From positions 21 through 64,020 of the forward strand of contig JAZNKG010000019.1 of assembly GCA_045578445.1 (NCBI GenBank): a DNA stretch of 64,000 nucleotides, given 5' to 3'. Both the position numbers and the translations under genes were made by a program. Within the stretch, counting starts at the first letter, position 1, and each line of letters opens with the position of its first letter. The notes below the pieces were generated by a model, which had not been told where the DNA came from, searched no databases, and saw only the letters and a list, made by a program, of their open reading frames with translations. Below, in pieces: positions 9,315 through 56,754 of the stretch. This DNA comes from Alphaproteobacteria bacterium (lineage in GTDB: Bacteria > Pseudomonadota > Alphaproteobacteria > RF32 > CAG-239).

Positions 9315-10322
9315 ATGTCAAAAATTGCAGTAGCCGGTGTGAAAAGTGGTCTAGGTCGTGAATTCTTAAATCTATTAAGTGAAAACAACTACTCTCCTGA
9401 TGATGTGGTAGCTCTAGAAGCTAAATCTCCTTTAGGAACACTTGTTTCTTACGGAGAAGATGATGAATTAGATGTATATTCACTTGATGAATATGATTTT
9501 AATAATGTTGATATTGTAGTTTTTGCCACAACAAAAGAAATAGGAAAGCGCTATATTAAAAAAGCAGTATCTGCAAAATGTAAGGTAATAGACCTATCTG
9601 GTGCAACTTTTACGGATAGTAATATTCCTATGGTTATTCCAGAAATTAATGGCGATATATTAAAAAATGGTATCCAAGCAGTGAGTGTTCCTTCATCATC
9701 TGTATACCAAACTTTATTACCATTAGCAGAAACCTTAAAAACAAATACATTAAAGCGTTTAGTTATAACAACATTCAACTCAACATCATATTATGGTCAT
9801 GTGGCTATGGATGAATTATTTAGCCAATCTCGCAAAATTTTCTTGAATGAAACATTGGCAGATAATCAACAAGTTTTCAAAAAACAAATAGCATTCAATG
9901 TATTACCACAAGTTGGAGAGTTTATTGGGGAAGAAACATCTTTAGAGTGGAGTATAAATGCAGAGGTTAAAAAACTACTCAATTCAGATATAAAAGTTCA
10001 CGCAAACTGCGCCTTTGTTCCAACATTTATAGGCGATGGAGCTTTCATAAATGCTGAATTTGAAAATGAAGTAGATGCTACCGAAGTAAGAAATCAAATG
10101 AAACAAGTAAAAAATGTTGTCGTATTTGATAAAAATGTTGATGGCGGATATGTGAGTGTTGATGATATACAAGGTGAAGATAACATCTATATTTCTCGTA
10201 TTCGACAAGATGTGTCAACAGAAAACGGTGTAAGCTACTGGAGTGTTGCCGATAATCTAAGAGCAGGTGGGGCAAAACTTGCATTTGAAGTTATGGTGTT
10301 AATGACAAGAAATATCCATTAA
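9315..10322 (+). CDS. USG-1-like member of the aspartate-semialdehyde dehydrogenase family (catalytic residues substituted)
   Basis: 335 aa, colinear with Asd/Usg (PMVIPEIN, AFNVLPQ, SVADNLRAGGA). The Asd NCS cysteine box reads SSS (aa 127-129) and the GHS histidine box reads GDG (aa 240-242). Confidence 0.7.
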   Translation: MSKIAVAGVKSGLGREFLNLLSENNYSPDDVVALEAKSPLGTLVSYGEDDELDVYSLDEYDFNNVDIVVFATTKEIGKRYIKKAVSAKCKVIDLSGATFTDSNIPMVIPEINGDILKNGIQAVSVPSSSVYQTLLPLAETLKTNTLKRLVITTFNSTSYYGHVAMDELFSQSRKIFLNETLADNQQVFKKQIAFNVLPQVGEFIGEETSLEWSINAEVKKLLNSDIKVHANCAFVPTFIGDGAFINAEFENEVDATEVRNQMKQVKNVVVFDKNVDGGYVSVDDIQGEDNIYISRIRQDVSTENGVSYWSVADNLRAGGAKLAFEVMVLMTRNIH

Positions 10323-10358
10323 TCTTCTATATCTATCAATTTTTTTAAGGATACAGCC

Positions 10359-34999: not shown

Positions 35000-35509
35000 A
35001 TGGAACGTGTTGCCGAGTTTGAAAAGGTAAGTTTTGAACAGTTTAAGAGTGCGTGGTTAGATATATTTTTAGACAGCGATGAAGAAATAAGATATGTATA
35101 TGATAACATAAAGCTTCCAGCACGCGCAACATCAGGCTCAGCTGGATACGACTTCTTTATGCCAATAAATATGAACTTAGCTCCAGGCGAAACATTTTTA
35201 ATTCCAACAGGTATTAGAGTAAAGATAGATGAGGGATGGTTTTTGTCAGTATACCCTAAATCAGGACTAGGATTTAAATATCGTCTCCAATTAGATAATA
35301 CAATAGGGGTTATCGATAGTGATTATTATTACTCAGATAATGAAGGTCATATGTATGTAAAAATGACCAACAGTTGCACCAATAATAAAACAATAGAATT
35401 ACAATCAGGTGCAAGCTTTTGCCAAGGAATCTTTTTGCCATACGGTATAACACACTCGGATAATGCAACGGGTGTCCGTAATGGTGGTTTCGGTTCAACC
35501 TCCAAATAA
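35000..35509 (+). CDS. dUTP diphosphatase (trimeric dUTPase family, YncF/phage-like long form)
   Basis: Motifs SAGYDFFMP, GVIDSDYY and C-terminal RNGGFGSTS. Confidence 0.85.
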   Translation: MERVAEFEKVSFEQFKSAWLDIFLDSDEEIRYVYDNIKLPARATSGSAGYDFFMPINMNLAPGETFLIPTGIRVKIDEGWFLSVYPKSGLGFKYRLQLDNTIGVIDSDYYYSDNEGHMYVKMTNSCTNNKTIELQSGASFCQGIFLPYGITHSDNATGVRNGGFGSTSK

Positions 35510-36514: not shown

Positions 36515-36543
36515 TTGCAAGGGGTAAAAAATTATGATACAAT
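36515..36543 (+). promoter_or_regulatory. Sigma-70-type promoter candidate for the vWA gene
   Basis: TTGCAA (36515-36520), 17-nt spacer, TACAAT (36538-36543) preceded by TG-A (extended -10-like). Confidence 0.5.
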
Positions 36544-36575
36544 ACCCGTATATGTAGGAAAAAAGGAGAATAATT

Positions 36576-39500
36576 ATGGTTGTAGATATAAAGAAATATG
36601 AAGAAGAATCAAAAATTCGCCATATTGATGATATTGTAAAAAATCCTCTTAACGTTTTACGTATAAGATTTTCAGAAAAGTTTTTATCAGCTGAAGCTCC
36701 CGAAAATATAACAGAAGAATATGTTCGAGAAGTTCATAAAGAATTGGAGAAATTTTTCAAAGATATGCCTGATGGAAAAGAAACTTTTGCTCGACATCAA
36801 GAAAATTTTGAACACTTTTTAAAAACCGGTGAACCCAAAACCCCATTAACATTAGATAGTGAGGAATCTTTATTTTATTGGGGAACTGTATTAGGCTTAC
36901 TAGCTGTTCACCCTGAAATGCAAGAAAATTGGGATGATAAACATCGTTTTGCAGATATTACTAAAAGTACGCTTTGGAAAAGAATAGAAAAAAGTAGCTA
37001 TATGCAAATAAATCTTCAAAAGCATGCGTATCTTGTAAAAAGAAGTGTTAATAATCCTAAAACTAAAATGGTTTACGGTGCTCCTGGAGGGTATCCTAAC
37101 ATCGGATATTGCTGTTCAACAAACATTAAAACAGGGGAAAAGATAATTTTTGATGATATGCTCTGGACATTATTAACCGGAGTAGATGCATCCGGTACTG
37201 CTATCGGTCATGAAATTGCGCACTCAGAGGGTTCACAGCACCATGAAACTCCTCGTATGATAGAAATAAATAAAGAACACGAAGAAGCAAAAAAACAATT
37301 AGAAGACGCTAAACAAAGAAATAATAAAGATGAAGTAATTGAGCTTACACGTAAAATACTAAGGTTAAATTTAGAATATAAGATGCGTTATAGATTTCAT
37401 GATGAATTAGAGAATATGTTCGCCAATCGCTTTGCTGTAACTCGCGGTGGTGACTTTGATAGAGCGCATCTAAACGAGCTAGAAGCAAGCATTAATGTTG
37501 GTGAAAAATATTTTGCTGGTAAAAAAATAGGAGAAGTTAGAAAGATACTCCAAAAAGACCCTATGGCACGAATCCAGCATGTAAAAGATATCGCACGTAA
37601 TAGTTTTTTCTGTAATAATGGTTTAGTAGAGGGAGAGCCCGTTGATTGGAATAAAATTGGATTATTTCCACAACTTCTAGATGGAATACATCCAGATGGC
37701 GAAGAAATGAGTCCATTAGAATGTTTTATGGAAATTCGTCGAATTTGTAATGAATTTGAAGAAAAACAACCATCTCAATCATTAGAAAATACTTCTCCTC
37801 AAATTTACAGAGAAAGAATGACAGAATTAAGCTTATATCGTATGGGTTTAGTTGATGAATTTTTTGATAAATTTGTTGCTCATCATATGGAAGAATTGTA
37901 TCAAAAGCAAAATGAGGAATTAGAGCAAATTTTGCAGTCATTACAACAGCAACAACAACAGCAACAACAACAGCAACAACAAGGCGGTCAAGGTCAAGGA
38001 CAACCTCAGCCTAACCAACAAGGACAAGGGCAAGGCGAGGGACAGCCTCAGCCTAACCAACAAGGACAAGGGCAAGGTGAGGGACAGCCTCAGCCTAACC
38101 AACAAGGACAAGGGCAAGGCGAGGGACAACCTCAGCCTAACCAACAAGGTCAGCAAGACGGACAACAACAAGGTGGTCAAGGTCAGCAAGACGGACAACA
38201 ACAAGGTGGTCAAGGTCAGCAAAACGGACAACAACAAGGTGGTCAAGGACAACAAGGCGGTCAAGGTCAGCAAGACGGACAGCAACAAGGTGGTCAAGGA
38301 CAGCAAGGCGGACAACAACAAGGCGGTCAAGGTCAGCAAAGCGGACAGCAACAAGGTGGTCAAAGTCAACAAGGCGGACAACAACAAGGCGGTCAAGGTC
38401 AGCAAGACGGACAACAACAAGGTGGTCAAGGTCAGCAAGACGGACAACAACAAGGCGGTCAAGGTCAGCAAGGCGGACAACAACAAGGAGGTCAAGGTCA
38501 GCCTCAGCCAGGACAACCTCATCCAGGGGATGATCCAAATGGAGATAGAAGCTGGCAGGATATGTTACCAACTATTGATGATATGCAGTTGCCAAATGTT
38601 AAGCCTAAAAATCCTTTAGAGGGAATGACAGATGAAGAGGTAGAAGAACTTCTATCTAAATCTAGTAACGTTGATGATTTAGCTCAAGAATATGAAAATG
38701 AACACCAAGAAGAAATAGAAGAACAAAAGCAAAAAGAAAGGGAGTTAAGAGAGGCACGTGGTGAATACGATGGTCCAAGACAAAGAAAACGCACTTCCGG
38801 TGATGCTTTCTCTCGCATAAAACATACAGAGGCAATATTAATAAGCAAAGAGGAAATGATGCCATCTGGTAATGAAATTGCTCGAGAATATCGTGAGGGT
38901 AGTTTTAGTTCTTATCAAAAATATGTCGCACAATTTACTGCGGAAATTGCTGTTGCAAGAACAATGATAAAAGAGATTATTACTCAGAAAAAATTAGAAG
39001 GTATAGAAAAAGGTGTTGAAACTAGACGACCTGTTCGTGCAATAAATCCAGGAAGATTACAAAAGCAAAGAGTCTTAGAATTAAAGAAAAAAATGTCTCG
39101 CGGAGAACAAGTTACAATACGAGATTTTGATCGTTTTGATAAAAAACGTAAATGTAGCGATACAGAATTATCAAAAGAAGTAGAAATTTCTCCAACAAAT
39201 ATTGCAATTGTAATAGATAGCTCAGGGTCAATGTGTGGTACTCCTTTTGATAATGCTATAAAAATTGCTTGCATTTTGTACGAAGCTGCTCGCGAATTTG
39301 ATGAGGTTAATTTATATGTATATGCAATGGGTGACCCTGAACCAGTAACTATAGCACACCCAGATATGTCAACAAAGAAAATATCTGAAATGCTTGATGC
39401 TGCAAGAAAACTTAATGGTATGGGATGTTCAGACCGTTTAATTCCAGCAGTTATTAAAGCTCTTTCTGATATTACTGATAGTATAAAATTAAAATCAAGA

Positions 39501-39896
39501 GAAAAAGGTAGCTTTACTCATATCTTCTCCATTACCGATGGTGGAAATAATGACTATGGTGGATGCGATGGCTATCAAGTTAATGATGTTTTAGAAAAGA
39601 TGATTAGAGAGAATCCTCAAATTACTATGGATAGCATTTTTATTGGCGAAGTAGGGGGGCAAAACTATACCAAACCACTAATTCATAGACTTCAAGACGA
39701 AGGTATTACTCAAATGGATTATGTTGATGTTCCTGATGGAGATGCAATACCAACAGCTGTTAGACAAATTTTAAAAGAACGTATGCGCCATAGTGATAAA
39801 GATAAAAAAGGACGTAAAATTAAACGTATTAATAGTCAAGATAAAGAAAGTATGGAGGCAATAATAAAAGAAGTACAAACATCAAGAAGACGTTAA
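36576..39896 (+). CDS. Large HExxH (zincin-like) / Gln-Gly-Pro repeat / von Willebrand factor A (MIDAS) protein
   Basis: 1106 aa. HEIAH at aa 212-216 (nt 37209-37223), low-complexity Q/G/P block at aa 457-640, acidic linker. MIDAS start IAIVIDSSGSM (D881; nt 39216-39230) with downstream FSITDGGNND. Confidence 0.8.
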   Translation: MVVDIKKYEEESKIRHIDDIVKNPLNVLRIRFSEKFLSAEAPENITEEYVREVHKELEKFFKDMPDGKETFARHQENFEHFLKTGEPKTPLTLDSEESLFYWGTVLGLLAVHPEMQENWDDKHRFADITKSTLWKRIEKSSYMQINLQKHAYLVKRSVNNPKTKMVYGAPGGYPNIGYCCSTNIKTGEKIIFDDMLWTLLTGVDASGTAIGHEIAHSEGSQHHETPRMIEINKEHEEAKKQLEDAKQRNNKDEVIELTRKILRLNLEYKMRYRFHDELENMFANRFAVTRGGDFDRAHLNELEASINVGEKYFAGKKIGEVRKILQKDPMARIQHVKDIARNSFFCNNGLVEGEPVDWNKIGLFPQLLDGIHPDGEEMSPLECFMEIRRICNEFEEKQPSQSLENTSPQIYRERMTELSLYRMGLVDEFFDKFVAHHMEELYQKQNEELEQILQSLQQQQQQQQQQQQQGGQGQGQPQPNQQGQGQGEGQPQPNQQGQGQGEGQPQPNQQGQGQGEGQPQPNQQGQQDGQQQGGQGQQDGQQQGGQGQQNGQQQGGQGQQGGQGQQDGQQQGGQGQQGGQQQGGQGQQSGQQQGGQSQQGGQQQGGQGQQDGQQQGGQGQQDGQQQGGQGQQGGQQQGGQGQPQPGQPHPGDDPNGDRSWQDMLPTIDDMQLPNVKPKNPLEGMTDEEVEELLSKSSNVDDLAQEYENEHQEEIEEQKQKERELREARGEYDGPRQRKRTSGDAFSRIKHTEAILISKEEMMPSGNEIAREYREGSFSSYQKYVAQFTAEIAVARTMIKEIITQKKLEGIEKGVETRRPVRAINPGRLQKQRVLELKKKMSRGEQVTIRDFDRFDKKRKCSDTELSKEVEISPTNIAIVIDSSGSMCGTPFDNAIKIACILYEAAREFDEVNLYVYAMGDPEPVTIAHPDMSTKKISEMLDAARKLNGMGCSDRLIPAVIKALSDITDSIKLKSREKGSFTHIFSITDGGNNDYGGCDGYQVNDVLEKMIRENPQITMDSIFIGEVGGQNYTKPLIHRLQDEGITQMDYVDVPDGDAIPTAVRQILKERMRHSDKDKKGRKIKRINSQDKESMEAIIKEVQTSRRR
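37944..37982 (+). repeat. In-frame (CAA/CAG)13 polyglutamine tract
   Basis: 13 consecutive Gln codons read directly from the sequence. Confidence 0.95.
37983..38147 (+). repeat. Tandem 42-nt coding repeat (one 39-nt plus three 42-nt units; GQGQGEGQPQPNQQ)
   Basis: The units are near-identical and differ by single bases (for example ggc/ggt, cag/caa). Confidence 0.9.
38148..38495 (+). repeat. Tandem 33-nt coding repeat, about 10.5 units (GQQ[D/N/G/S]GQQQGGQ)
   Basis: The unit ggtcagcaagacggacaacaacaaggtggtcaa recurs head to tail, with one truncated 18-nt unit. Confidence 0.9.
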
Positions 39897-39903
39897 ATTT
39901 TAT

Positions 39904-39932
39904 TTGCGTTAACTAAAAATTTATGATATAAT
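39904..39932 (+). promoter_or_regulatory. Internal promoter candidate for the AAA+ ATPase gene
   Basis: TTGCGT (39904-39909), 17-nt spacer, extended -10 TGaTATAAT (39924-39932). Confidence 0.45.
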
Positions 39933-39973
39933 ATGTAATATACCAACAATTAGGTAAAAAAGGGAGAACTACA

Positions 39974-42766
39974 ATGACAGAAGAAATAAATAACGAAATA
40001 ACATGGATTGAATTAGGTTCAGCAGAATACCCTATTCCTATTGGTGCTGAATATGATAAAGATGGAAAAGTAGTAAGGATTAAATGGCTTCAATCCGATG
40101 AAGATGCTATTTACATTCCCACAATGCGCACTGGTGAAACACAAGAACAGCTTTATGGCCGTTTTATTCGAGATGTTGTTTCAGACCCTGTATTACTTAG
40201 AAGTATGGAAGAGATTATACGTCGTACAGATATCACCTATGCCGATAAAGACGAAAAAAGTGCTTCTCTCACAATGATTGGTGACCCTGGTTGCGGTAAA
40301 ACATTTATGGCATCAAGAATTGCCGAATTATTACACCCTAAAGGTGCATTTAAAGTGGATTGTGGTATCTTAACAGAACCAGAAGCTTTATACCAAGTGA
40401 CAGTATTAAATGCCGGAGGTCACAATAAAGTTCAAGCAGTTAAAGCTTTTATAGATAGAGGTAATAACCCAGAAACTGAATTAGAAATTCCTAGAGAACT
40501 TGTTGTAAAACTTACTAAAGAGTTTGGAATTAAATATGTAAATACAGTAAATCGTGATGGCCGTAAATTTGTAGAAGTTGACTTTAACGGAATTGCAGAT
40601 ACATATTCAGGCAAACATGTAGAACAAGTAATGTCTGAAGTTATTGAAAAATTCAATATTCCTTATGAAAATGAGCAAGGTGGCGTAGGTATAAGTTATA
40701 GAAACGGTCCTTTATTACGTGCTTTATTAGACCCAAGTTCTCCTGACTATGGTCGTCCTGTAATTCTAGATGAATCTAACCGTTTGCCTGAAGTAGATGC
40801 TTGGTTAACTATTAATGCATTTTTCTCAGACCCTAATGTTGATAAACTGGTACTTCGTGGTGAAGATAATAGAGAATTTACAATATATCGTAAAGATTTA
40901 CCTGAAAACTTTTTATTAATAGGTACAGCAAACCCTGCTACTGATGAAATGGGATCCAGTGCTCAAACTATGAGCAGACCTATGGTATCACGTGCTGGTG
41001 CTAATATTGATATTATTACTAGTGGTCGAGCAAAACAACATGACTTTTTCTCTCGTTCACTAAAACACTTTACAGGTGTACCTGCATATATGGTTTATAT
41101 GATAGACCCAGAGTACTATGATAAGCATCCAGAAGAATTAGCAGAAAGATTAATGTATCTTCGTGTTGTAGGTTTGGAGGGAGTTGATAATCCACATATG
41201 TGGGCGGCAAAACTCTTAGCTAATCCATATTTAAGAGAAGAAAATATGCCTGAATCTATTAAATTAATTCCTAAAGATGAATTATTTAATATTAAGCATA
41301 TTGATAGAACTATTCATGTTGCCAGAAATTATGGTACACTTCTTTATGAAACTGCAGAAATGGTTGAAAACTTAATTAAAGACGAAGATGTTGCGCCTAC
41401 ATATAGAAATTACTTAAGTGAACTTGGTGTAGTAGATTTACGTTATGCCTTTAAGTTATTCCAGCATACACAAACTCATGGTGTTAGTCAAAAAACAGAA
41501 AATAAACCAATTACTGTAGGTGATAAAACTAAAACCCAAGAAGAAATTCAAATGCGTGCACAACAACGTGCTATGGAACGTAAAGTAGGAAAAAAATTCA
41601 CAAGAGGTACTATGTTAGACATAGGTACAGTCGAACGCTTGAAAAATATCTTGAAGCCAGATAATTATCATGATTTCTTCGATACATTAAGTGATGAAGA
41701 AATTAAAACTACATCAGAGAAAGTTTTTGCAGCTCTTGAAAAATTAATGGGAATTGCACAAAATAAATGTCACTTTAAACATGCTGGTTATGAAGGCAAT
41801 GACTCTGTTGCAAATCTTTATAATGCAAGACCAGAAGACTTTGAAGAAAGCGCTGAAGCTAAAGAAATTGCAAAAATTTTAATTGATAGTATCAATGATG
41901 CAATGGGCACAAACCTCAAGGTTGATGATATTAATGGTGAAGAAGCTCTTAAACTTTTAGAACAATTAATCAAAGAAGATGAAAATGATAATACTGTAAT
42001 CGTTCCATCTCATGAGGTTAAAGACTATGAGAAGAGAAGCTTCAAGCCTTTCCAAAGAACAAAAATTCACTCTTCAGATGATGTTACATCTATTGAGCCT
42101 AAAGACTTAGCAACAATTGATCAATTTATAGATAGTTTAATTGTTGATAAGGCAAGGGCACACAATATTAAAAAATTAATGACTCAATCTCAGCAAAATA
42201 TTGAACAAAGTTTTGCTTTACCAGAATTTTATGGTAGCGAACATGATGGTAGAAGTATTAAAGAAAAAATTGAGCCATTGAAACAGATTATTTCTGGTGA
42301 AAATCCAAATGTATTTGTATCATTTATAATTTTACAGGATAATTCAAATGAAACAAAAGAGCCAGAATCAAGATTTGCAGTATTAATTTATAATAAAGCA
42401 GATGATAAAGTAGGTGTTATTTCAACATTTGACGTTAGCGAAAGCGATCACAAAAAGCTTAAAGAAAAAGGAATTATTCTATTAAATGCAGAGCAACAAA
42501 AAATTGGTCCAGAATTTATGAACTATATAAAAGGTGAGAATACTGAAATTGTTGATAAAGACGTTTATGAATCAATATATTTGATAATGCGACCAGATTT
42601 GATGGAACAAGCAAGCCTATCAGGAATTAGTTCAATATTTGATTCTATTGGTAGCTCAACTATTTCTAGTGGAGACTTGGAGAACCCAGGACTTATTCAC
42701 TGTATAGAAAAAATACCAACAAAGACTAATTTAATAAATAAAATTCAAGATAGATTTGGAATGTAG
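39974..42766 (+). CDS. Large AAA+ ATPase, MoxR/AAA_5-like core with about 580-aa uncharacterised C-terminal extension
   Basis: 930 aa. Walker A GDPGCGKT (aa 103-110; nt 40280-40303), Walker B VILDE (aa 263-267; nt 40760-40774), sensor-1-like LLIGTANP, Arg-rich SRPMVSRAG. No second P-loop seen. Confidence 0.8.
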   Translation: MTEEINNEITWIELGSAEYPIPIGAEYDKDGKVVRIKWLQSDEDAIYIPTMRTGETQEQLYGRFIRDVVSDPVLLRSMEEIIRRTDITYADKDEKSASLTMIGDPGCGKTFMASRIAELLHPKGAFKVDCGILTEPEALYQVTVLNAGGHNKVQAVKAFIDRGNNPETELEIPRELVVKLTKEFGIKYVNTVNRDGRKFVEVDFNGIADTYSGKHVEQVMSEVIEKFNIPYENEQGGVGISYRNGPLLRALLDPSSPDYGRPVILDESNRLPEVDAWLTINAFFSDPNVDKLVLRGEDNREFTIYRKDLPENFLLIGTANPATDEMGSSAQTMSRPMVSRAGANIDIITSGRAKQHDFFSRSLKHFTGVPAYMVYMIDPEYYDKHPEELAERLMYLRVVGLEGVDNPHMWAAKLLANPYLREENMPESIKLIPKDELFNIKHIDRTIHVARNYGTLLYETAEMVENLIKDEDVAPTYRNYLSELGVVDLRYAFKLFQHTQTHGVSQKTENKPITVGDKTKTQEEIQMRAQQRAMERKVGKKFTRGTMLDIGTVERLKNILKPDNYHDFFDTLSDEEIKTTSEKVFAALEKLMGIAQNKCHFKHAGYEGNDSVANLYNARPEDFEESAEAKEIAKILIDSINDAMGTNLKVDDINGEEALKLLEQLIKEDENDNTVIVPSHEVKDYEKRSFKPFQRTKIHSSDDVTSIEPKDLATIDQFIDSLIVDKARAHNIKKLMTQSQQNIEQSFALPEFYGSEHDGRSIKEKIEPLKQIISGENPNVFVSFIILQDNSNETKEPESRFAVLIYNKADDKVGVISTFDVSESDHKKLKEKGIILLNAEQQKIGPEFMNYIKGENTEIVDKDVYESIYLIMRPDLMEQASLSGISSIFDSIGSSTISSGDLENPGLIHCIEKIPTKTNLINKIQDRFGM

Positions 42767-42776
42767 GAGATAAGAC

Positions 42777-43091
42777 ATGACAGATAAAAAGTTTAATAGA
42801 GATGAATTGGAAACCTTAGTATTAGAGCAGATTATGTCTCGACCATATCACGATTTTAGTGGCAATAAAATCCATTATGTTGCAGAGGAATATGAAGCTA
42901 TATTTGTAAAAAACTTAAAAGGTAATAAAGAAGTTCATAATCTTAGTGAACTTGAAGAAGCAGTAAATTCTCCAGAGGTAAAAACAATTTTTATTGGCAG
43001 AAGTGCTGCTATCACCTCTAGAGGATTAGAAAATGTTTTATCTAGGACAAGCTTAATAAAACAAATTTTCTGTGCTTTTGAAATAAAGTAA
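42777..43091 (+). CDS. Hypothetical 104-aa protein coupled to the AAA+ ATPase gene
   Basis: It starts 10 nt after the ATPase stop, behind AGGAG, and is followed by the unit's terminator. Confidence 0.55.
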   Translation: MTDKKFNRDELETLVLEQIMSRPYHDFSGNKIHYVAEEYEAIFVKNLKGNKEVHNLSELEEAVNSPEVKTIFIGRSAAITSRGLENVLSRTSLIKQIFCAFEIK

Positions 43092-43103
43092 AAAAACTGC
43101 ATT

Positions 43104-43136
43104 AAAAAAAGCGCCTCTATTTGAGGCGTTTTTTTT
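43104..43136. terminator. Bidirectional rho-independent terminator
   Basis: Stem CGCCTC/GAGGCG with a 7-nt A-run and an 8-nt T-run, between convergent genes. Confidence 0.8.
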
Positions 43137-43140
43137 ATTA

Positions 43141-44583
43141 TCAACGAAGCTTTAGTTTTGCTAACAAAGTAATAATCGTTACAACTTCTAATCGACCTAA
43201 TACCATAACAAAAGCTAATACATATTTTATAAAATCTGAAAATTCCGCATAATTACCCGTAGGTCCAGTTTTTTCTGTAAGACCTGGACCAAAGCTTGTA
43301 ATAGCTCCCACAACAGCACCAAGCGCTGTTACAATGTCTATACCAGATAAACAAAGCACTGTAACAAAAAAGAATATCGCTAAAATAAAACTCATTACCA
43401 ATACAAATACAGACGCCACAATATCATTACTTACAGCTTTATCTCCTGTTTTAATAACAGTTGCTTGGTTAGGGGATAGTGCATTAATAGTATGCTTTTT
43501 TAAAAAACCAAAAACAACTTGCCATCTAAATATTTTAATCGATCCAGAAGTAGAGCCAGTACATCCTCCATGAAGTGTTAGAGCGCAAATTACAATAGGC
43601 GCCCAAACACCCCAAGTAATATAGTTATAAGACGTAAATCCCGTTGTCGTAATTGCAGAAACAAAATTAAAACCAATAATTCTTAGGCTCTTAAAAAAGT
43701 CAATATCTTTTGATAAAGCAAAAAATAAGCTAAATGACAAAATATAAACAATTATAAGCTTAAACAACGTGTTAACCTGCGGATTAGATGTGATAAATGA
43801 AATTTTCTTTTCCTTAAACAACAAAACAAAATAAGTTAAAGGCAAAGCACCTAATATCATAAAAAATATGATAATAAGCTCAATTTCAATACTGTTAAAC
43901 CAAGCAATAGATGTATTTTTAGTAGAAAAACCACCGGTACAAACTGTTGATAAAGCGTGCGAAATTGCGTCAAACCAATTCATGCCAAACTCTTTTAGTA
44001 AAGTCGCGCATACAATATTTAATATTACATAAACCAAGATAATATCTTTAGCAATATCTCTGATTTTAGGTAAGAATTTATCTTCAGTATCAGAATTTTC
44101 CTTCTTAAAAATATTCATACCACCAATACCCAAAAAAGGCATCAAAGCAACAGCAAAAATCACAATTCCAATGCCACCGATAGAGTTTAACATAGCACGC
44201 CACAACAAAACAGATTTAGGCTGACTCTCAATATCTTTAATAATCGATGCCCCAGTTGTTGTAATCCCAGAAGTGGCTTCAAATATAGCGTCAGTAATTG
44301 TTTTAATGTCACCATTGTTATATAGAGGAATAGCACAAATTAAAGGTGCGATATACCAACAACTTATAGTAATTAAAAAACCTTGTAAAATCGAAATGTT
44401 TTTTATCTTTGAATAGTTTGCCACAAATAAACTACCTCCAATAAAAATAGAAACAATTCCACTTTGTATAAAAATAAAATCAAACTCACCAGTAATATAT
44501 TTCATAACAATAGCAGGGATAAACATCATTAACCCTAAAATAGAAATAACATACCCATTAATCATCAAAATTGGATGCCACAT
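43141..44583 (-). CDS. trkH: Potassium uptake protein TrkH
   Basis: 480 aa and polytopic. Repeated selectivity-filter-like segments (TSGITTTGAS, CTGGFS, TTTGFTS, CTGSTSGSIK) are typical of TrkH/KtrB. Confidence 0.9.
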   Translation of the reverse strand: MWHPILMINGYVISILGLMMFIPAIVMKYITGEFDFIFIQSGIVSIFIGGSLFVANYSKIKNISILQGFLITISCWYIAPLICAIPLYNNGDIKTITDAIFEATSGITTTGASIIKDIESQPKSVLLWRAMLNSIGGIGIVIFAVALMPFLGIGGMNIFKKENSDTEDKFLPKIRDIAKDIILVYVILNIVCATLLKEFGMNWFDAISHALSTVCTGGFSTKNTSIAWFNSIEIELIIIFFMILGALPLTYFVLLFKEKKISFITSNPQVNTLFKLIIVYILSFSLFFALSKDIDFFKSLRIIGFNFVSAITTTGFTSYNYITWGVWAPIVICALTLHGGCTGSTSGSIKIFRWQVVFGFLKKHTINALSPNQATVIKTGDKAVSNDIVASVFVLVMSFILAIFFFVTVLCLSGIDIVTALGAVVGAITSFGPGLTEKTGPTGNYAEFSDFIKYVLAFVMVLGRLEVVTIITLLAKLKLR

Positions 44584-44672: not shown

Positions 44673-47201
44673 TTAAGATAATGTATTATCCTTGAAAGAA
44701 AATCTAGGAATAGCTACTTGGTCGTTAAAACTTAACATTGCATTATTTAATGCTCTGTTTAAGCTTCTTTCTGCTAAGACATCTAAACTACTTCTAATAT
44801 CTGCAAAATAACCGCTTTTACCATATTGTGAACGAGATCTCATATATCTTGCAAAAGTATTCTCATTACCCCAATGTTGGTTATTAAATGCACAATATGT
44901 GTACGCATCTTTATAGTTTGTTTCAGCACTAGGGAATAATGTTTGGTGATGATATTTACTATATCCACGAGGCGCCCAAACAAATAATACTGCATCATCA
45001 TTAGATTTCATGTAGTTTTTAACATCGCTTTCAAGATTATAAGAGCGATGTACCGAAGAATTAATCATACTTAAATCATTCTTTAGCGACATACAAGAAT
45101 GAACATTCTGACAATAATTTATAAACTCTGTAAGCGCAGTATTAATGTGACTATTAGGATTCTCTTCCTTAAATATCGTAGCTGCTTGACAAAGACTAGC
45201 CATACTCATACCAGCACAATATAGAGTAGGGTGAAGAGGTGACTGAATGCCATAACTTCTTAATGCTCTATTAGCTTCACTAAAGAAATATTTTTTATTA
45301 TTACCATATTTGAGGTCAACATAGTTTTGGTGACTACATTGCATGTATATGCTAAAAAATACTTCCAAATCTCTGTCTTTTTGAAGTTCATAAATATTAG
45401 TAATTTTGCTATAGTTGAAATTAGAAATGTCTGGTATAAAAGAATCTCTTCTACCGCTTTGACCAATTGCAGGAGCATCAATAGTTGGTTCAAAAGTAAA
45501 TCTACTATTGTCAATAGCAATACTTTTTGCATCAGCAAATTTACTATTTTCAACTCTGTCTTTCATATAAGAAAACAGTTTGCTTTCATAAACAGGGTTA
45601 ACTGAAGTCTTATTAATAAGAGCAACCAATTGTCTCCAATCGCGCATACCAATATATGGATTATTAATTAATCTATCTAAACAAAGCTTTTCAGCAGATG
45701 TAATTACTTTACCTTCGTCAATATAGAAGTCGCGAATGCCCTTAGCAACTGCACCAACATAATTTTTACCTGAATATTGTTTTTGCAAAATATGATACAT
45801 GTATGCAGCAATACTGCGATTTTGCATAAAACCAATTCCATATTGGTCATAAATTGTTGTTTTAGCAATAATTCTATAATCATCATAAGAAAGATTATTG
45901 TAGTCATATATTCTATTCATACGAGCTACAGATACATTATGTGACATAAAATCATCATACATACGCTTAGTAATACCATATTTATTATTTTGACCATCTC
46001 TAGTGTTAGTCATATTAAAGCAGTAGTTAAACAAGTCGATATTAGGCAACTGCAATAACTGATCATTACTAAGAACAGGAATATTTGAGCTAATGCTTTT
46101 GTATTTATGAGTAGGCAATGTATCAACAATTTGAGCATCTGTTTTAATACTATCTTTATGTTTTTTTCTGCTAGGTAAACTTAAATTAAACATTCTCTCG
46201 TTATTTCTAGCTGTTGCTTTTTTAGGAGTAAATGTAACTTCTTTCACAGTTCTATTATCATCTAATTGACCAGGATTTTTAAATCCCAAATAAGTCATAT
46301 AGCTAAATCCTGCAACAGGAATACCTATCATAGCATATTTTAGTGATTTTAGCGCCCCATTTTTCAATCCATCAAAAGAAATATCATTTAATTTATTTGC
46401 CTGACGTCTAATAAATTCTTTTCTTTTTGCAATACGAGCCTGTTTTTCTTTTTGTAATTGTTTTTTATAGTTTTCTATATTGGATTTAATATTTTGGACA
46501 ATAGCCTTTCTTTTTTCTTCTCTTTCTAAACGTTTTGCCTTTCTGGCATTTTTATTTTCCTCACGTTTTAGAATCTTTTCCTTTTTAAGTTTAGCTTTTT
46601 CAGCATTTTTAAGTTTAATATCTTCTTCACGTTTTAAGCGCTCTTCTTCTTTTATTTTTTCTTGTTCAAGCTGTTTTGCTTCATTTTCTTCTTTGCGTTT
46701 TAAACGGTTAGCTTCGCGTTTTGCAATTTCTTGCGCTCTTTTTTCTTGTAATTCTTCAATTTTACTACTAGCTAATTGCCTTGCTTCATTAATCCCTTGT
46801 CTAGTATTTTCTACATATGTTACAACAGTATTTTTAAGGGTTTGTACAGCTTCTTGTCTTTTTTGAGTACGTTGAACCTTTTTAGAATTTGTTTCATCTA
46901 AAGTTGGAAGTTTAGCTAAAAGTTGTTGTTTAAATTCTTGTTCCAATTCAAGTCTTGCACGTCCTAAAGCCATAAATTTTGGCAAGCTATCATCTTGTGA
47001 ATATTTTTTTTGTAAATCAAAAAGTCGAGAATTATTTTTAACAACAAAACTCTTTACTTCATTATCATATTTTGATATAAAACTTGTATATTTTTCTGGA
47101 TTTTGGCTAAATTCATTTTTAGAAAATTTTACACCATAAAGTGCGCACTTTTCTGTTGCTTCTTCAAACAATTCAATATTAAAATCATTGTTTATTGGCA
47201 C
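44673..47201 (-). CDS. Membrane-anchored coiled-coil protein with large uncharacterised C-terminal domain
   Basis: 842 aa with a GTG start. aa 150-270 is K/E/R-rich coiled coil, there is one TM helix (YAMIGIPVAGFSYMTYLGF), and the roughly 530-aa C-terminal domain contains conserved-looking Cys/His. Confidence 0.65.
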   Translation of the reverse strand: MPINNDFNIELFEEATEKCALYGVKFSKNEFSQNPEKYTSFISKYDNEVKSFVVKNNSRLFDLQKKYSQDDSLPKFMALGRARLELEQEFKQQLLAKLPTLDETNSKKVQRTQKRQEAVQTLKNTVVTYVENTRQGINEARQLASSKIEELQEKRAQEIAKREANRLKRKEENEAKQLEQEKIKEEERLKREEDIKLKNAEKAKLKKEKILKREENKNARKAKRLEREEKRKAIVQNIKSNIENYKKQLQKEKQARIAKRKEFIRRQANKLNDISFDGLKNGALKSLKYAMIGIPVAGFSYMTYLGFKNPGQLDDNRTVKEVTFTPKKATARNNERMFNLSLPSRKKHKDSIKTDAQIVDTLPTHKYKSISSNIPVLSNDQLLQLPNIDLFNYCFNMTNTRDGQNNKYGITKRMYDDFMSHNVSVARMNRIYDYNNLSYDDYRIIAKTTIYDQYGIGFMQNRSIAAYMYHILQKQYSGKNYVGAVAKGIRDFYIDEGKVITSAEKLCLDRLINNPYIGMRDWRQLVALINKTSVNPVYESKLFSYMKDRVENSKFADAKSIAIDNSRFTFEPTIDAPAIGQSGRRDSFIPDISNFNYSKITNIYELQKDRDLEVFFSIYMQCSHQNYVDLKYGNNKKYFFSEANRALRSYGIQSPLHPTLYCAGMSMASLCQAATIFKEENPNSHINTALTEFINYCQNVHSCMSLKNDLSMINSSVHRSYNLESDVKNYMKSNDDAVLFVWAPRGYSKYHHQTLFPSAETNYKDAYTYCAFNNQHWGNENTFARYMRSRSQYGKSGYFADIRSSLDVLAERSLNRALNNAMLSFNDQVAIPRFSFKDNTLS

Positions 47202-47351: not shown

Positions 47352-49037
47352 TTACTCAGAATAAAAAGTCTTAGAAGCGCCGTTAGGTGATGTTAGAGTA
47401 ATGGTATATCGGCTATTAGAATATTTTGCATCGTAAGAATTAATAAAGGCAGAATAATTGCCATTTGGTGCATTTTCCCATCCCAAAATCTTACAACTCA
47501 AAACATCTATACCAGCTATAATCTTATTGTTTTCAGAATACCAAGCAATACCCTCAGAAATATCAACCGCTCTAGCAAGCTCAAACGGTTCATAAACATC
47601 ATCTCTTGCGACAGAATTAAAACCTGTGTATCCAGCAGTAGTGTAGGTATATTCCTCAGGAAAATCCTGATGATAATCGCATACACCCCATAAATAACCA
47701 TGTTCAAACCTCAGCATAACACATTTTTTAGTGATTTTTCCATCACTAAAAGTTGCATCTGGGTCATAAACTGCAGTAACACTAAAATCTACAATTTTAC
47801 CATACTTATAGATTTCTGGCTCAGGCTCAGGCTCAGGCTCTTTTCCATCATTTGGCGGAACAACAGACTCATTGTTACTATTAATAAGAGTTGTAGACAC
47901 AACCTCCTCAAAGCGTTTATCTAGTACCAAAACATAAGCTTGTGATTTATTTAATACTTCAGTATTAGACAACGTATCAAGCTTAGTATCAATATTAAAT
48001 TCATACTTCAAGTCAAAGTAATGCGTTTTTCCATCATCTGTTAAAAAACTAACCTCATAAAGAGGGTAGGTGAATTCATCAACAAAGCTTTCATTACCAT
48101 TGTCATATTTTATTTTTTGACAGGCAATACTTCTCTTAATTGACCAGTTATCATTCACATTTTCAATAACATCAGATGTCTCAACGTCTAATCTCTTATC
48201 AAAAGCATAGCTACTAACTTCAATACTTTTATCTTCTTTAGGTGTAAAGAAAAATTCCATAACAGGAGATGTGTATGTAAATTTCTTATTACCAGAATTA
48301 CTCCATTTTTCGCTTCTTTCAAGAAAGAAAGAAAAATGAGTTTCATCAATCCAAGTATATCCGTCAGAATAAGATGCGTCTAAAAGCTCATCATTCACAG
48401 CAAGTGGTTTCTTGAAGTAGTGAGTAGAAATATCTTCGCTAGAAGAATTTTTTTCATTACTAACATTCCACATTACAGTAAAAAACAAATCAGCAAAGAA
48501 AAGGTTGTCTTCGTTGACAATTTCATCGCAACTCGCTTCGTTAAAGGTTACATCGCTTACATTCATATATGGCAAATCATATGATATATTGCCAATTGAT
48601 GCATTATAGCTTTCATAATAAACCTCAACATTCGCAACTTGCCCATCAGTAAAATAGAATTTTTTAGAAATACTATTTTTTGATGGAGCTATTCCTTCAG
48701 AGTTACTACTAGATGTTTCTTTCTCGTAAATAACATCAGGTTTGCTATTACTGTCAAAAAAGATAGTATCCTTATCTACATAGAGCTTAACAAAAGCGTA
48801 TGGATTAAGAGTAAACTCTTTTCCATCAATAGTGTAGCTAATTCGTTGATTGCATTCAAAGACAAGGGTGTCAGCATCTTTTTTGTCTTGCCAATTATAG
48901 CTATAAACGGGAACAAAGGAAACATCGTTTGCTGTTTCAATTGTTAGAGTTTCTCCAGCGCATCCGCTAAAGAAAAACATCGTTAATACCAAAACCAACA
49001 AAGGCGGTATCAAACGCAAAAACACGTTCTTTTTCAT
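47352..49037 (-). CDS. Large lipoprotein, unknown function
   Basis: 561 aa. Signal peptide plus lipobox FFSG-C, and a PEPEPEPE linker around aa 400. Confidence 0.65.
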   Translation of the reverse strand: MKKNVFLRLIPPLLVLVLTMFFFSGCAGETLTIETANDVSFVPVYSYNWQDKKDADTLVFECNQRISYTIDGKEFTLNPYAFVKLYVDKDTIFFDSNSKPDVIYEKETSSSNSEGIAPSKNSISKKFYFTDGQVANVEVYYESYNASIGNISYDLPYMNVSDVTFNEASCDEIVNEDNLFFADLFFTVMWNVSNEKNSSSEDISTHYFKKPLAVNDELLDASYSDGYTWIDETHFSFFLERSEKWSNSGNKKFTYTSPVMEFFFTPKEDKSIEVSSYAFDKRLDVETSDVIENVNDNWSIKRSIACQKIKYDNGNESFVDEFTYPLYEVSFLTDDGKTHYFDLKYEFNIDTKLDTLSNTEVLNKSQAYVLVLDKRFEEVVSTTLINSNNESVVPPNDGKEPEPEPEPEIYKYGKIVDFSVTAVYDPDATFSDGKITKKCVMLRFEHGYLWGVCDYHQDFPEEYTYTTAGYTGFNSVARDDVYEPFELARAVDISEGIAWYSENNKIIAGIDVLSCKILGWENAPNGNYSAFINSYDAKYSNSRYTITLTSPNGASKTFYSE

Positions 49038-54639: not shown

Positions 54640-56754
54640 ATGCAGTGGAATAAAAAAGATTTATCAAATATAATAAACAAAGGTAAAAAAGCCATACATG
54701 CATATATAACTCCATATCTAGATAATCCTGAAAATGATGATTTGTTTACCATAGAAAATTTTGCCTATCTTTGGGCAATTTTAGGTGCTATAAATCTAGA
54801 GAATATGACAAATAAAACTCATCACAAAATTTGGGCAGTGCTCAAACAAACAACAGCATTAGATGCGCATGATAAAGGAATGCTTTTAAGTTTTACTCAA
54901 AATATTGCTAAAAACACCCCAAATGTAACACAAAAGTATTGGTTGGATTTAGATACATATGATATACGAGTTAAATTTTGCCAAGAAATACTATGGGAGA
55001 TTCTTAAAAATAATGAGGATTTAACTAAAGAAGTTGCACCATATTGCCTAGATGGTGTTCGTCTTGTAGAAAGCCTGGTAGATAGAGAGTTAATTCCTCA
55101 AGTAGAGAGTTATCTAGATCAATTACGCGGGCAGGGTGCATCTTGTGGTGTTTCTGGTGGTGCTATTAGAGATATATACGAAAAAGAGGCAGTATTTCGT
55201 AAAGTATGCTTAATTGTTGCTAATCTAAAGCGAAAATTAGCCTTTGATGAAAAAGAGTATTTATTTCGCTACTTTCATGAAGTATACTTAGACGGTTATG
55301 ATCCAACACATATTGGATTAGATGACGGTATGTTATCACGCCTTATGGCTGATGAAGAGTTAGATGGTGTATCAGAACTTGAAGCACATAAATTTCTTGA
55401 CCATAACTGTGAAATAGCAGAGTTTTCAAAAGAACTAGATAAAATATATGGCTTTTGTGAAAATACTGCCGCCAAACTTATTCGTCATGATACATCTCAT
55501 ATTACCAATATGGTAGAGCGTTGCTTAGCTCGAATAGAAATAGATGAAAAGCCTAAAGGAGTGTTATTTGCACTAGAATTAGTTAACTTAAATCAAATGA
55601 AAACAGCTGTTACAATTTTAATTGAACTAGCCAAAAAAGGTAGAGCAACAGAAATGCCTTGTTTCCTACACAGAATTTTACCAAAGATTTCTGGTTCAGA
55701 AACAATGATTATGAAAATACTAAGATTAAATCTTCAACAACTACATTTAGATGATGTTATTGGAGGAAATGCAGGGTTAAAAGAATATGTATTGCGCACG
55801 TATTTAAATGCTGTAGAAGCCTTTGTTGAAACGAATTATACCAAGGAAGCTGCAGAGTTATTACAAGAACTGGTAAATGGTGGCTGGTTCTTAGGTTCTA
55901 GAAATTTAGTATATACAAAGTTTATTGATATTTCAAATAAAATAATAGCCTTAGATACTAATCAAACTACTTTACTCTGCGCTATAGCTAAAAAATTAAA
56001 TCTAAAAATTTATACTAATAATGATATAGTATCAATTGGCAAAGAAATAGCAGTATTGCCTAGTCTTATGAACGATATTCCAGTAGAGGAAGAAATTATT
56101 TTAGACAATACCGAGATTTTAGCAGATGACACTGAAATAATTGAAGATACCCCGGAGATAATAGAAACAGATACTCTGTTAGATAATATTGAAGAGGTTG
56201 AAGTACTTGACCAAGATACTCAAAACAATATAGAAGAAAACTTAGATGATGCAACTTCTGATGAAAAAGAAATTATCAGCGATAGTCAAAGTGATACTAC
56301 AGATGAAAGCAAACAGTCGGAAGATGCATTTCAGGCGATGTTAAATCAGTTTACTCAAAGTTTGCCTGAAGATAATACCGAAACAACATCTACACAAGAG
56401 ACTGCAACAGAAGCTACAAATCCAACAGAAACAGAAAATGAAATCACAAAAATAGATGAGGATGTTGAAGATAAAAAAAGCTTAGAGCTTCCTAAAGAAG
56501 ATAATAATGAAGAAGAAAAGAAAGAAACAACTTCAGATGACGATACAAAAATTGATACTAAAAGCATATTCAATATTACACAAATAGATGTAGATAAACA
56601 CTTTGAAAAAATTAAAGATATAACTTCAAAGGCTTCAAAACAGGCAGAAAAAATCAAAGAGAAAGTAGAAAATATAGATATTGCTAATTCTAAATCCGTA
56701 GAAAAAATAAAAGAAGTAGCTAAAAAAATATCTTTATTTAAGTGGAAAAAATAA
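54640..56754 (+). CDS. Hypothetical protein (704 aa) with D/E/T-rich C-terminal third
   Basis: Long uninterrupted ORF. The helical N-terminal roughly 480 aa has no recognised motif. The C-terminal roughly 200 aa is acidic low complexity ending in a K-rich tail. Confidence 0.6.
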   Translation: MQWNKKDLSNIINKGKKAIHAYITPYLDNPENDDLFTIENFAYLWAILGAINLENMTNKTHHKIWAVLKQTTALDAHDKGMLLSFTQNIAKNTPNVTQKYWLDLDTYDIRVKFCQEILWEILKNNEDLTKEVAPYCLDGVRLVESLVDRELIPQVESYLDQLRGQGASCGVSGGAIRDIYEKEAVFRKVCLIVANLKRKLAFDEKEYLFRYFHEVYLDGYDPTHIGLDDGMLSRLMADEELDGVSELEAHKFLDHNCEIAEFSKELDKIYGFCENTAAKLIRHDTSHITNMVERCLARIEIDEKPKGVLFALELVNLNQMKTAVTILIELAKKGRATEMPCFLHRILPKISGSETMIMKILRLNLQQLHLDDVIGGNAGLKEYVLRTYLNAVEAFVETNYTKEAAELLQELVNGGWFLGSRNLVYTKFIDISNKIIALDTNQTTLLCAIAKKLNLKIYTNNDIVSIGKEIAVLPSLMNDIPVEEEIILDNTEILADDTEIIEDTPEIIETDTLLDNIEEVEVLDQDTQNNIEENLDDATSDEKEIISDSQSDTTDESKQSEDAFQAMLNQFTQSLPEDNTETTSTQETATEATNPTETENEITKIDEDVEDKKSLELPKEDNNEEEKKETTSDDDTKIDTKSIFNITQIDVDKHFEKIKDITSKASKQAEKIKEKVENIDIANSKSVEKIKEVAKKISLFKWKK

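Follow-up and report, generated by a model that had tools for sequence, protein, structure and literature searches.

The window analysed here, that is, the whole 64,000-nt stretch taken from contig JAZNKG010000019.1 of an alphaproteobacterial genome assembly (GCA_045578445.1), carries on its forward strand three consecutive genes, called the triad below, that form a real, robust and operon-like unit. This unit is specific to one group of mostly uncultured Alphaproteobacteria, namely to animal-gut, Micavibrio-like and some environmental metagenome-assembled genomes (MAGs). Gene 1 encodes a protein that ends in a von Willebrand factor A (vWA) domain with a MIDAS (metal ion-dependent adhesion site), gene 2 encodes an AAA+ ATPase and gene 3 a small protein, and we consider it moderately probable that the triad makes up a remodelling complex of the MoxR-AAA+/vWA-MIDAS kind, which works in the cytoplasm, is driven by ATP and is inherited vertically. 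The three open reading frames (ORFs), whose coordinates and motif positions in the original prediction, made from the letters of the window, proved exact on re-translation, are the following.

36576..39896, forward strand: gene 1, 1106 aa; zincin-like N-terminal domain (N-domain), low-complexity linker, charged helical region, C-terminal vWA/MIDAS domain.
39974..42766, forward strand: gene 2, 930 aa; N-terminal four-strand beta domain, one AAA+ module, about 530 aa of C-terminal domains without known relatives.
42777..43091, forward strand: gene 3, 104 aa; starts 10 nt past gene 2, behind AGGAG.

The linkage of the three genes was established by a neighbourhood survey. A search of 5.8 billion proteins returned 36 relatives of gene 2, the named ones among which belong to MAGs of uncultured Alphaproteobacteria, and a scan with one genome per species gave 27 triad loci, all labelled Alphaproteobacteria except one MAG labelled "Bdellovibrionales". 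The loci came from the gut of human, mouse, rabbit and roe deer, from an uncultured Micavibrio, and from MAGs of groundwater and lakes. Wherever a related locus had room for both genes 1 and 2 (32 of 32), the two were neighbours, at identities as low as about 22–25%, and in several of these loci the stop codon of one gene overlaps the start codon of the other. Of the first 31 loci, 26 have a homologue of gene 3, recognized with an iterated profile, directly 3' of gene 2; in the two most distant gene 2 relatives, fetched later, the triad layout was kept as judged by the sizes and order of the ORFs. One subclade has the order gene 2–gene 3–gene 1, and there, too, the small ORF is a gene 3 homologue by the iterated profile. 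Apart from the triad itself, nothing is kept between the distant loci, where unrelated genes surround it (for a transglycosylase, a histidine kinase, glycosyltransferases, ankyrin proteins). The co-occurrence of the three ORFs in related genomes, which the original prediction had proposed for such a survey, is thus strong. The database entries for the triad proteins all read "hypothetical protein" or "VWA domain-containing protein", and no literature on the triad was found.

Gene 2 belongs to the AAA_5/MoxR group as a very divergent and unusually large member, and its two main parts are located as follows (pLDDT, predicted local distance difference test).

40256..41173, forward strand: AAA+ module of gene 2, aa ~95–400; about 100 additional aa are inserted between the two Walker motifs.
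41174..42763, forward strand: C-terminal region of gene 2, aa 401–930; helical and alpha/beta domains, pLDDT mostly 70–95.

The module carries Walker A (GDPGCGKT, 103–110), VILDE (263–267; Walker B followed by N-R, "ILDESNR", 263–270) and GTANP (317–321) with sensor 1 N320. In 26 sequences, down to 19% identity, there is no variation at G103–T110, D266, E267, N269, N320, R340 and R397, and at least 90% keep R270; the same catalytic residues are kept in the alignment of the core. As neither Walker A and B nor sensor 1 nor two of the arginines change in this set, the ATPase is very likely active. The AlphaFold2 (AF2) model of gene 2 has a mean pLDDT of 81 and places a four-stranded N-terminal beta domain at aa 10–50. 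When it was compared with the PDB by Foldseek, the NorQ hexamer 9qh4 came first (E 5e-4, template modelling (TM) score 0.49 on target), followed by CbbQ 6l1q, McrB, ClpB-NBD2 and dynein, all restricted to the AAA+ part; the similarity is modest because of the insertions. Candidate hairpins for the helix-2 insert and the pre-sensor-1 beta-hairpin, at 189–202 and 291–305, lie in the model about where these elements are expected. By sequence, Pfam AAA_5 matched gene 2 with 29.1 bits (cut-off 22), but over profile positions 2–53 of 139 only, which is the P-loop third, and it was the top Pfam family in 10 of the 26 relatives, level with the generic AAA_22. The assignment of gene 2 to the MoxR/AAA_5 type with an adjacent vWA partner, as originally predicted, was borne out by the invariant catalytic residues and by a core nearest in structure to NorQ and CbbQ. 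The profile of the AAA+ core alone found McrB as its best real match in the PDB, with E 0.05, as the two share the P-loop and a Walker B of the form "DE-x-NR"; McrB is thus both a sequence-level and a structural match, but the E-value is only 0.05, and the triad has no McrC-like nuclease partner or DNA-binding domain. The C-terminal region of about 530 aa had no Foldseek, PDB or Pfam match.

A side observation on gene 2 comes from a related gut genome, L004 (L001–L032, like P0135, P0067 and P0049 below, are our labels for relatives of the triad), where the gene is broken into ORFs of 138 aa (9539–9955) and 719 aa (10001–12160), as a frameshift or pseudogene or through an assembly error.

The second element that carries the proposed reading is the vWA domain of gene 1.

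39186..39788, forward strand: vWA domain of gene 1, aa ~871–1071; MIDAS residues D881-x-S883-x-S885, D953 and T987-D988.

Its motifs are IAIVIDSSGSM (876–886) and ITDGG (986–990). Among 50 diverse gene 1 sequences with a mean column identity of 17%, D881 and S885 are invariant, S883 and D988 are kept in at least 90%, and D953 and H982 are invariant or nearly so. The full-length model of gene 1, compared with the PDB by Foldseek, gave 20 matches at E ≤ 1e-3, all of them vWA/MIDAS domains, and the BFVD matches listed were likewise vWA. Four Rea1/MDN1 MIDAS structures stood at the top of the list (E 3e-6 to 4e-5), and next came Rpn10, TRAP, integrin I domains and TFIIH p44; the lead of Rea1/MDN1 over the other vWA domains is small (1e-6 vs 1e-4). 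Pfam VWA scored 22.7 with the gene 1 of the window, just under its cut-off of 23.8, and in the relatives VWA_2 matched 31 of 50 (best 5.7e-8) and CobT_C 7 of 50 weakly, with matches to VWA and VWA_CoxE as well. In all members of the gene 1 family the vWA domain is C-terminal, with nothing after it. A vWA fold with a complete MIDAS at the C-terminus of gene 1, as originally predicted, is therefore confirmed by both the structural matches and the invariant or near-invariant motif residues.

The Rea1/midasin structures are the best structural matches of this domain, gene 2 belongs to the dynein/midasin AAA_5 group, and a long acidic or low-complexity tether stands before the MIDAS domain in both systems. 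At the same time, the ring and the MIDAS of the triad are on separate chains, and there is one AAA module per chain against six in midasin. These likenesses could be taken further, to a bacterial split-chain counterpart of midasin in which a housekeeping AAA_5 ring would drive a long-tethered MIDAS that seizes an acidic residue on one member of a large cellular assembly (for example, one of ribosome biogenesis or of the envelope), and would extract this member by ATP hydrolysis and cleave it by the tethered zincin, with gene 3 as MIDAS ligand or adaptor in the role of the ubiquitin-like (UBL) domain. We regard this as improbable, and the notion of gene 3 as a UBL-type MIDAS ligand is pure speculation.

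The third element is the N-domain of gene 1, with a candidate metal site.

36618..37985, forward strand: N-domain of gene 1, aa ~15–470; mostly helical, AF2 pLDDT 75–93.
37209..37223, forward strand: HEIAH, aa 212–216.
37410..37412, forward strand: E279, candidate third metal ligand (putative role), in a conserved D-E-x-E-N-x-x-A-N-R motif on helix 251–290.

In the model, a three-stranded sheet (aa 164–193) stands directly before the HEIAH helix (aa 203–219), and a long helix spans 251–290. The sheet, the motif helix and the 63-residue spacing from H216 to E279 would be compatible with a gluzincin, to judge by the known zincin families. By our estimate, the chance of a single HExxH in a protein of this size is a few percent; since the motif is kept in 85 of 103 diverged full-length relatives (83%), it goes beyond chance. 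In the same 103 members, E213 is kept in 97, H212 in 85, H216 in 87, E279 in 95 (92%), D194 in 100 and N348 in 96. An exhaustive hidden Markov model (HMM) search of 1.84 billion proteins gave 170 representatives of the N-domain family, nearly all of 850–1300 aa, and the remotest of them still have a C-terminal vWA domain. The profile of distant gene 1 orthologues returned 3 matches only in the 5.8-billion-protein search, where the word prefilter was probably swamped. Pfam gave no family for the N-domain, except Peptidase_M10 in 2 of 50 members at E 0.0065, and its profile found nothing in the PDB sequences at E ≤ 10. More generally, when the N-domain, the C-terminal part of gene 2 and gene 3 were searched against Pfam, NCBIfam, PHROGs, PADLOC and the PDB (by phmmer or profile), nothing was identified beyond vWA and P-loop. 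We conclude that the N-domain is a new family with an ancestral metalloprotease-like site, which most lineages probably use for catalysis and some can do without.

The layout with an HExxH module N-terminal to a vWA-like domain, beside an AAA_5 ATPase, had been likened in the original prediction to the DUF2201_N/DUF2201 proteins (PF13203/PF09967). This analogy stood as far as the layout goes, but not as family membership, which was rejected, for neither model matched any of 20 members in a first comparison or any of 50 diverse members in a second one (thresholds from E ≤ 0.1 to E ≤ 1, the latter for the 50). In addition, the triad proteins are 2–3 times longer, gene 1 has a long disordered linker, and gene 3 is present. 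No functional account of DUF2201 was found in the literature.

The N-domain and the vWA domain are joined by a long connecting part.

37968..38540, forward strand: Q/G/P low-complexity linker, aa ~465–655; predicted disordered, pLDDT <50 for aa 471–658.
37998..38502, forward strand: tandem repeats encoding the linker (Tandem Repeats Finder: 42-nt unit x3.6, 96% matches; 33-nt unit x7.7, 90%).
38541..39185, forward strand: charged, partly helical region, aa ~656–870, between linker and vWA domain.

Across the family the linker has the same position and a length of 60–547 aa, and it is Q/N/G/S/P-rich or acidic (47% Q/N/G/S/P, 21% D/E). The gene 1 orthologues P0135, P0067 and P0049 of another species, 99% identical, have 1053, 1063 and 1073 aa, one 10-aa repeat apart. 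Given this range of lengths and the whole-repeat differences between 99%-identical orthologues, the linker is a flexible tether that grows and shrinks rapidly; its position is like that of the NorD linker and of the acidic stretch that precedes the MIDAS in midasin. The long ORFs that the Q/G repeat contains in other frames or on the other strand (37941–38522, reverse; 38077–38619, forward; 38137–38571, reverse) were rejected as genes, being most likely by-products of the stop-poor low-complexity repeat.

The members of the gene 3 family have 95–111 aa and few conserved positions, among which R90 is invariant; an acidic patch precedes A62. There was no match for gene 3 in Pfam or the PDB. Since it keeps its place directly after gene 2 even where gene 1 has changed position, gene 3 probably acts together with the ATPase.

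MoxR-AAA+/vWA pairs are widespread, and their mechanism is understood in few cases, namely NorQD, CbbQO, RavA-ViaA, the chelatases and Rea1. The triad shares with NorQ/NorD and CbbQ/CbbO an AAA_5-type ATPase gene beside the gene of a partner composed of an N-domain, a linker and a C-terminal vWA domain with a complete MIDAS. NorQ, moreover, is the best structural match of gene 2, and the mechanism of NorQD was taken as the working model: NorD consists of N-domain, linker and C-terminal vWA, NorQ remodels and stretches the NorD linker, and a finger-in-pore and linker-stretching mechanism has been proposed (PMC13036017). By analogy, the product of gene 2 would form a hexameric AAA+ ring, and the vWA domain of gene 1 would dock on it, as NorD does on NorQ and the MIDAS domain on the Rea1 ring. 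The MIDAS metal of gene 1 would capture an acidic residue of a client protein, and ATP hydrolysis would pull or twist gene 1 via its long flexible linker, this pull positioning or gating the HExxH...E (gluzincin-like) domain on the client. The N-domain would then cleave the client or, where the histidine ligands have been lost, merely grip it, with gene 3 as a stoichiometric adaptor or regulator of the gene 2 ring. What the analysis shows are the identities of the domains, the conservation of their motifs, the linkage and synteny of the genes and the lack of mobile or defence signatures; complex formation, the docking mode, the peptidase activity and the role of gene 3 are inferred.

At the same time, the triad differs from these pairs in several respects. 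Gene 2 has 930 aa against about 270 in NorQ, the surplus being the N-terminal beta domain, the AAA+ insertion of about 100 aa and the C-terminal 530 aa or so; gene 1 has an HExxH domain and a low-complexity tether of 60–547 aa; and the triad has the obligatory 104-aa gene 3. There is no sequence-level orthology with NorQD or CbbQO, and no nor or cbb target genes are near the triad. No NCBIfam equivalog for CobS/CobT, NorQ/NorD, CbbQ/CbbO or RavA/ViaA matched at E ≤ 1, PDB phmmer and hmmsearch likewise gave none, and none of the client genes cobN, norCB, cbbLS and ldcI/frd is near the triad, where the neighbours are ackA, dinB, dut, trkH, psd, rpoD, dnaG, etc., and the related loci have neighbours of a similar sort. 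Orthology to CobST, NorQD or CbbQO was rejected on these grounds, and the triad is not orthologous to RavA-ViaA either, in agreement with the original view of it as something other than these pairs.

A number of observations weigh against the remodelling complex as described above. The likeness of gene 2 to MoxR proteins is weak, with a Foldseek E of 5e-4, a TM score of about 0.49 on target and a Pfam match on the P-loop third; no obvious long "finger" insertion was seen in the vWA model of gene 1; and no conserved client gene stands beside the triad in close or distant loci. No described peptidase family matches the N-domain by sequence, and among the 50 matches listed per run against the PDB and BFVD, all of them vWA, there was no zincin structural match for it. 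About 15% of the N-domain members have one or both histidines replaced (RExxK, RExxR, RExxY), so catalysis is not universally required. The claim of a zincin was thus upheld as to the HExxH on a helix with a downstream Glu, kept in most members, and left weaker by the members without the histidines and by the lack of a structural match for the fold among those listed, all of which fell on the vWA domain.

The Micavibrio-type gene 1 at L018:5287-7974, L019:5263-7974 and L021:1716-4373 has REAAY or REAAN in place of HExxH and retains E213, E279, the MIDAS and the whole triad. To judge from these residues, such genes look like natural "catalytically dead" variants, and because lineages without the histidines exist naturally, they offer a built-in comparison on whether catalysis matters.

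A rather unlikely alternative, albeit the best supported of those considered, is that the triad is a chaperone for the insertion or maturation of a metal cofactor, much as NorQD serves cNOR, CbbQO Rubisco, CoxDE CO dehydrogenase and CobST cobaltochelatase; HExxH...E would then hold or deliver the metal instead of cleaving peptide bonds. NorQ and CbbQ as the nearest structural relatives of gene 2, the weak CobT_C and VWA_CoxE matches in the gene 1 relatives, the layout of N-domain, linker and vWA shared with NorD (PMC13036017) and a housekeeping-like vertical inheritance all fit it. It is opposed by the lack of a matching NCBIfam equivalog of any characterized pair and of a candidate target enzyme kept beside the triad in close or distant loci, and also by the loss of both histidines in several lineages, which would abolish a carrier site as well. 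The chelatase subunits CobS/CobT (BchI/BchD) resemble the triad in the acidic linker followed by a C-terminal vWA domain, in the weak CobT_C matches in 7 of 50 relatives and in the phage CobT-like proteins among the BFVD structural matches of gene 1; the difference is that neither models nor genes of CobS, CobT or CobN turned up, and that the matches are confined to the generic vWA part.

The genomic setting agrees better with the remodelling complex than with systems of defence or attack. The window is low-GC (~31%) core chromosome with priA, trmFO, asd, rpoD, dnaG, psd, ftsX, ackA, dinB, dut, trkH and rsmB, and in the gut clade the flanks are syntenic, with trkH, psd and two conserved orphan ORFs. 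The gene 2 profile had no match in 2.9 million viral contigs, gene 2 had none in plasmids and the gene 1 N-domain none in phage genomes, and neither PADLOC nor PHROG gave a real match for the triad. None of the three proteins has a hydrophobic stretch that could serve as a signal peptide or transmembrane helix, and secretion-system genes were found neither in the window nor in the related loci. The core synteny, taken together with the absence of mobile-element, phage, plasmid or defence matches and of transmembrane segments or signal peptides, points to a vertically inherited cytoplasmic system and not to a defence island or a secreted effector. An origin as prophage, plasmid or defence island was rejected accordingly, given the lack of PADLOC, PHROG, viral, plasmid and phage matches and the conserved synteny.

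The vWA-MoxR ternary systems, which have been proposed as NTP-dependent conflict systems, have a third component that is a VMAP, iSTAND, FtsH or beta-propeller protein, and a vWA domain followed by variable C-terminal effectors, occasionally metallopeptidases (Kaur et al. 2020, PMC7159879). The triad could be such a system, its peptidase being the effector or signal processor and its repeat linker the product of an arms race. Like them, it has three components around a MoxR-vWA core, with a peptidase domain of the sort that is sometimes fused there; its linker differs by whole repeats between 99%-identical strains, and the triad proteins diverge faster (35–50% identity) than their neighbours trkH and psd (60–73%). 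In contrast to these systems, the triad keeps a single fixed architecture with a C-terminal vWA domain and no variable effectors, and its third component, of 104 aa, is small and unrelated to VMAP, iSTAND, FtsH or beta-propeller. It is vertical and syntenic, whereas they are sporadic and paralogous; it stands in core chromosome with no mobile-element genes, without real defence, phage, viral-contig or plasmid matches; and the repeat variation is in a disordered tether and not in a recognition domain. Such a role is therefore quite improbable.

Still lower in support, and very unlikely, is a secreted or host/prey-directed effector, with gene 1, by its eukaryote-like MIDAS, Q-rich region and protease, acting on the host or prey cell and genes 2 and 3 serving as chaperone or unfoldase for its export. 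Among the carriers are gut lineages that live with a host and Micavibrio-like (predatory) organisms, three lineages have ankyrin-repeat proteins next to the triad, an autotransporter gene lies near one related triad, and the gene 1 vWA domain is most like the MIDAS domains of eukaryotic midasin; but the proteins lack signal peptides and transmembrane segments, no secretion-system genes accompany them, the triad is also present in groundwater and lake MAGs, and MoxR systems that work inside the cell typically show just such a tight 1:1:1 linkage with a cytoplasmic AAA+ ring.

The original picture of an uncharacterised ATP-driven MIDAS/peptidase machine was retained in part: the AAA_5 ATPase, the vWA partner, the HExxH domain and the linked triad stood, but the proposed anti-invader and effector roles were not supported. 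The framing of the locus as accessory, anti-invader or host-effector fits poorly with a syntenic core chromosome, a single fixed architecture, no defence or mobile match and no signal peptide or transmembrane segment. The dUTPase of the window (35000–35509, forward strand), originally described as of phage type, belongs to PF00692 as a common dut, and the related genome L005 has it in the same position at 92% identity, with no feature that marks it as a phage gene.

As for the other neighbours, trkH of the window (43141–44583, reverse strand) is downstream of the triad and convergent with it, and in the related gut genomes L001, L003 and L004 it is upstream, with an ORF of 515–522 aa between; its placement is a local rearrangement in an otherwise syntenic locus. 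Three ORFs of the window had no Pfam match (44673–47201, reverse, 842 aa; 47352–49037, reverse, 561 aa; 54640–56754, forward, 704 aa), the first two of which are kept near the triad across the gut clade at 33–57% identity. Ankyrin-repeat proteins are beside the triad in three lineages, and none adjoins the triad of the window. Their ORFs are L026:3422-4909, L027:6284-7756, L028:6274-7761, L030:6286-7758, L032:7724-8731, L018:10873-12006 and L019:10605-11750; they lie 5' of gene 2 in the rabbit-gut clade and 3' of gene 3 in L032, and in the Micavibrio-type L018 and L019 a weak Ank-like ORF comes after gene 3. These proteins could be a lineage-specific adaptor or client, or a coincidence. The autotransporter mentioned above (L003:1-1493, reverse strand, from a gut MAG) has faint Chlam_PMP repeat matches and lies a few kb from the triad.

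The expression signals read from the sequence of the locus are given below.

36515..36543, forward strand: promoter-like TTGCAA-17 nt-TACAAT with TG upstream of the -10; from a consensus scan only, such matches being no commoner in the region than in shuffled sequence.
36563..36568, forward strand: Shine-Dalgarno AAGGAG, 7 nt 5' of the gene 1 ATG.
39924..39932, forward strand: TGaTATAAT, extended -10-like, in the gene 1–gene 2 spacer; direct reading, putative internal promoter.
43104..43136, both strands: bidirectional intrinsic terminator (A-run-GCGCCTC-TATTT-GAGGCG-T-run), common to the triad and the convergent trkH.

By direct reading, the Shine-Dalgarno sites of genes 1, 2 and 3 are AAGGAG, AAGGGAG and AGGAG, respectively, and the spacers of 77 nt (genes 1 and 2) and 10 nt (genes 2 and 3) each have such a site at their end. 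Both gaps, the AGGAG before gene 3 and the terminator are thus present where they had been placed originally. In view of the TGaTATAAT sequence in the first spacer, genes 2 and 3 may have their own promoter and be transcribed independently of gene 1.

What is new here is two domain families and a firmly linked triad within the already known MoxR-vWA kind, in carriers that are uncultured. Three features set the triad apart from every characterized pair: its MIDAS partner bears a conserved metalloprotease-like domain on a tether, its ATPase is three times as large as usual and includes unknown domains, and a small third subunit is obligatory. Should the domain on this tether be an active peptidase, MIDAS capture and AAA+ force would be coupled directly to proteolysis, which would be a new design of regulated protease. 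If, beyond this, the split-chain likeness to midasin were true, the triad would represent a novel protease class, gated by ATP, targeted through a MIDAS and restricted to Alphaproteobacteria, with a cleavage step unlike any known MoxR or midasin system. In any case, the triad is a conserved, unannotated core feature of abundant uncultured gut Alphaproteobacteria and Micavibrio-like bacteria, and it may mark a cell biology specific to this clade.

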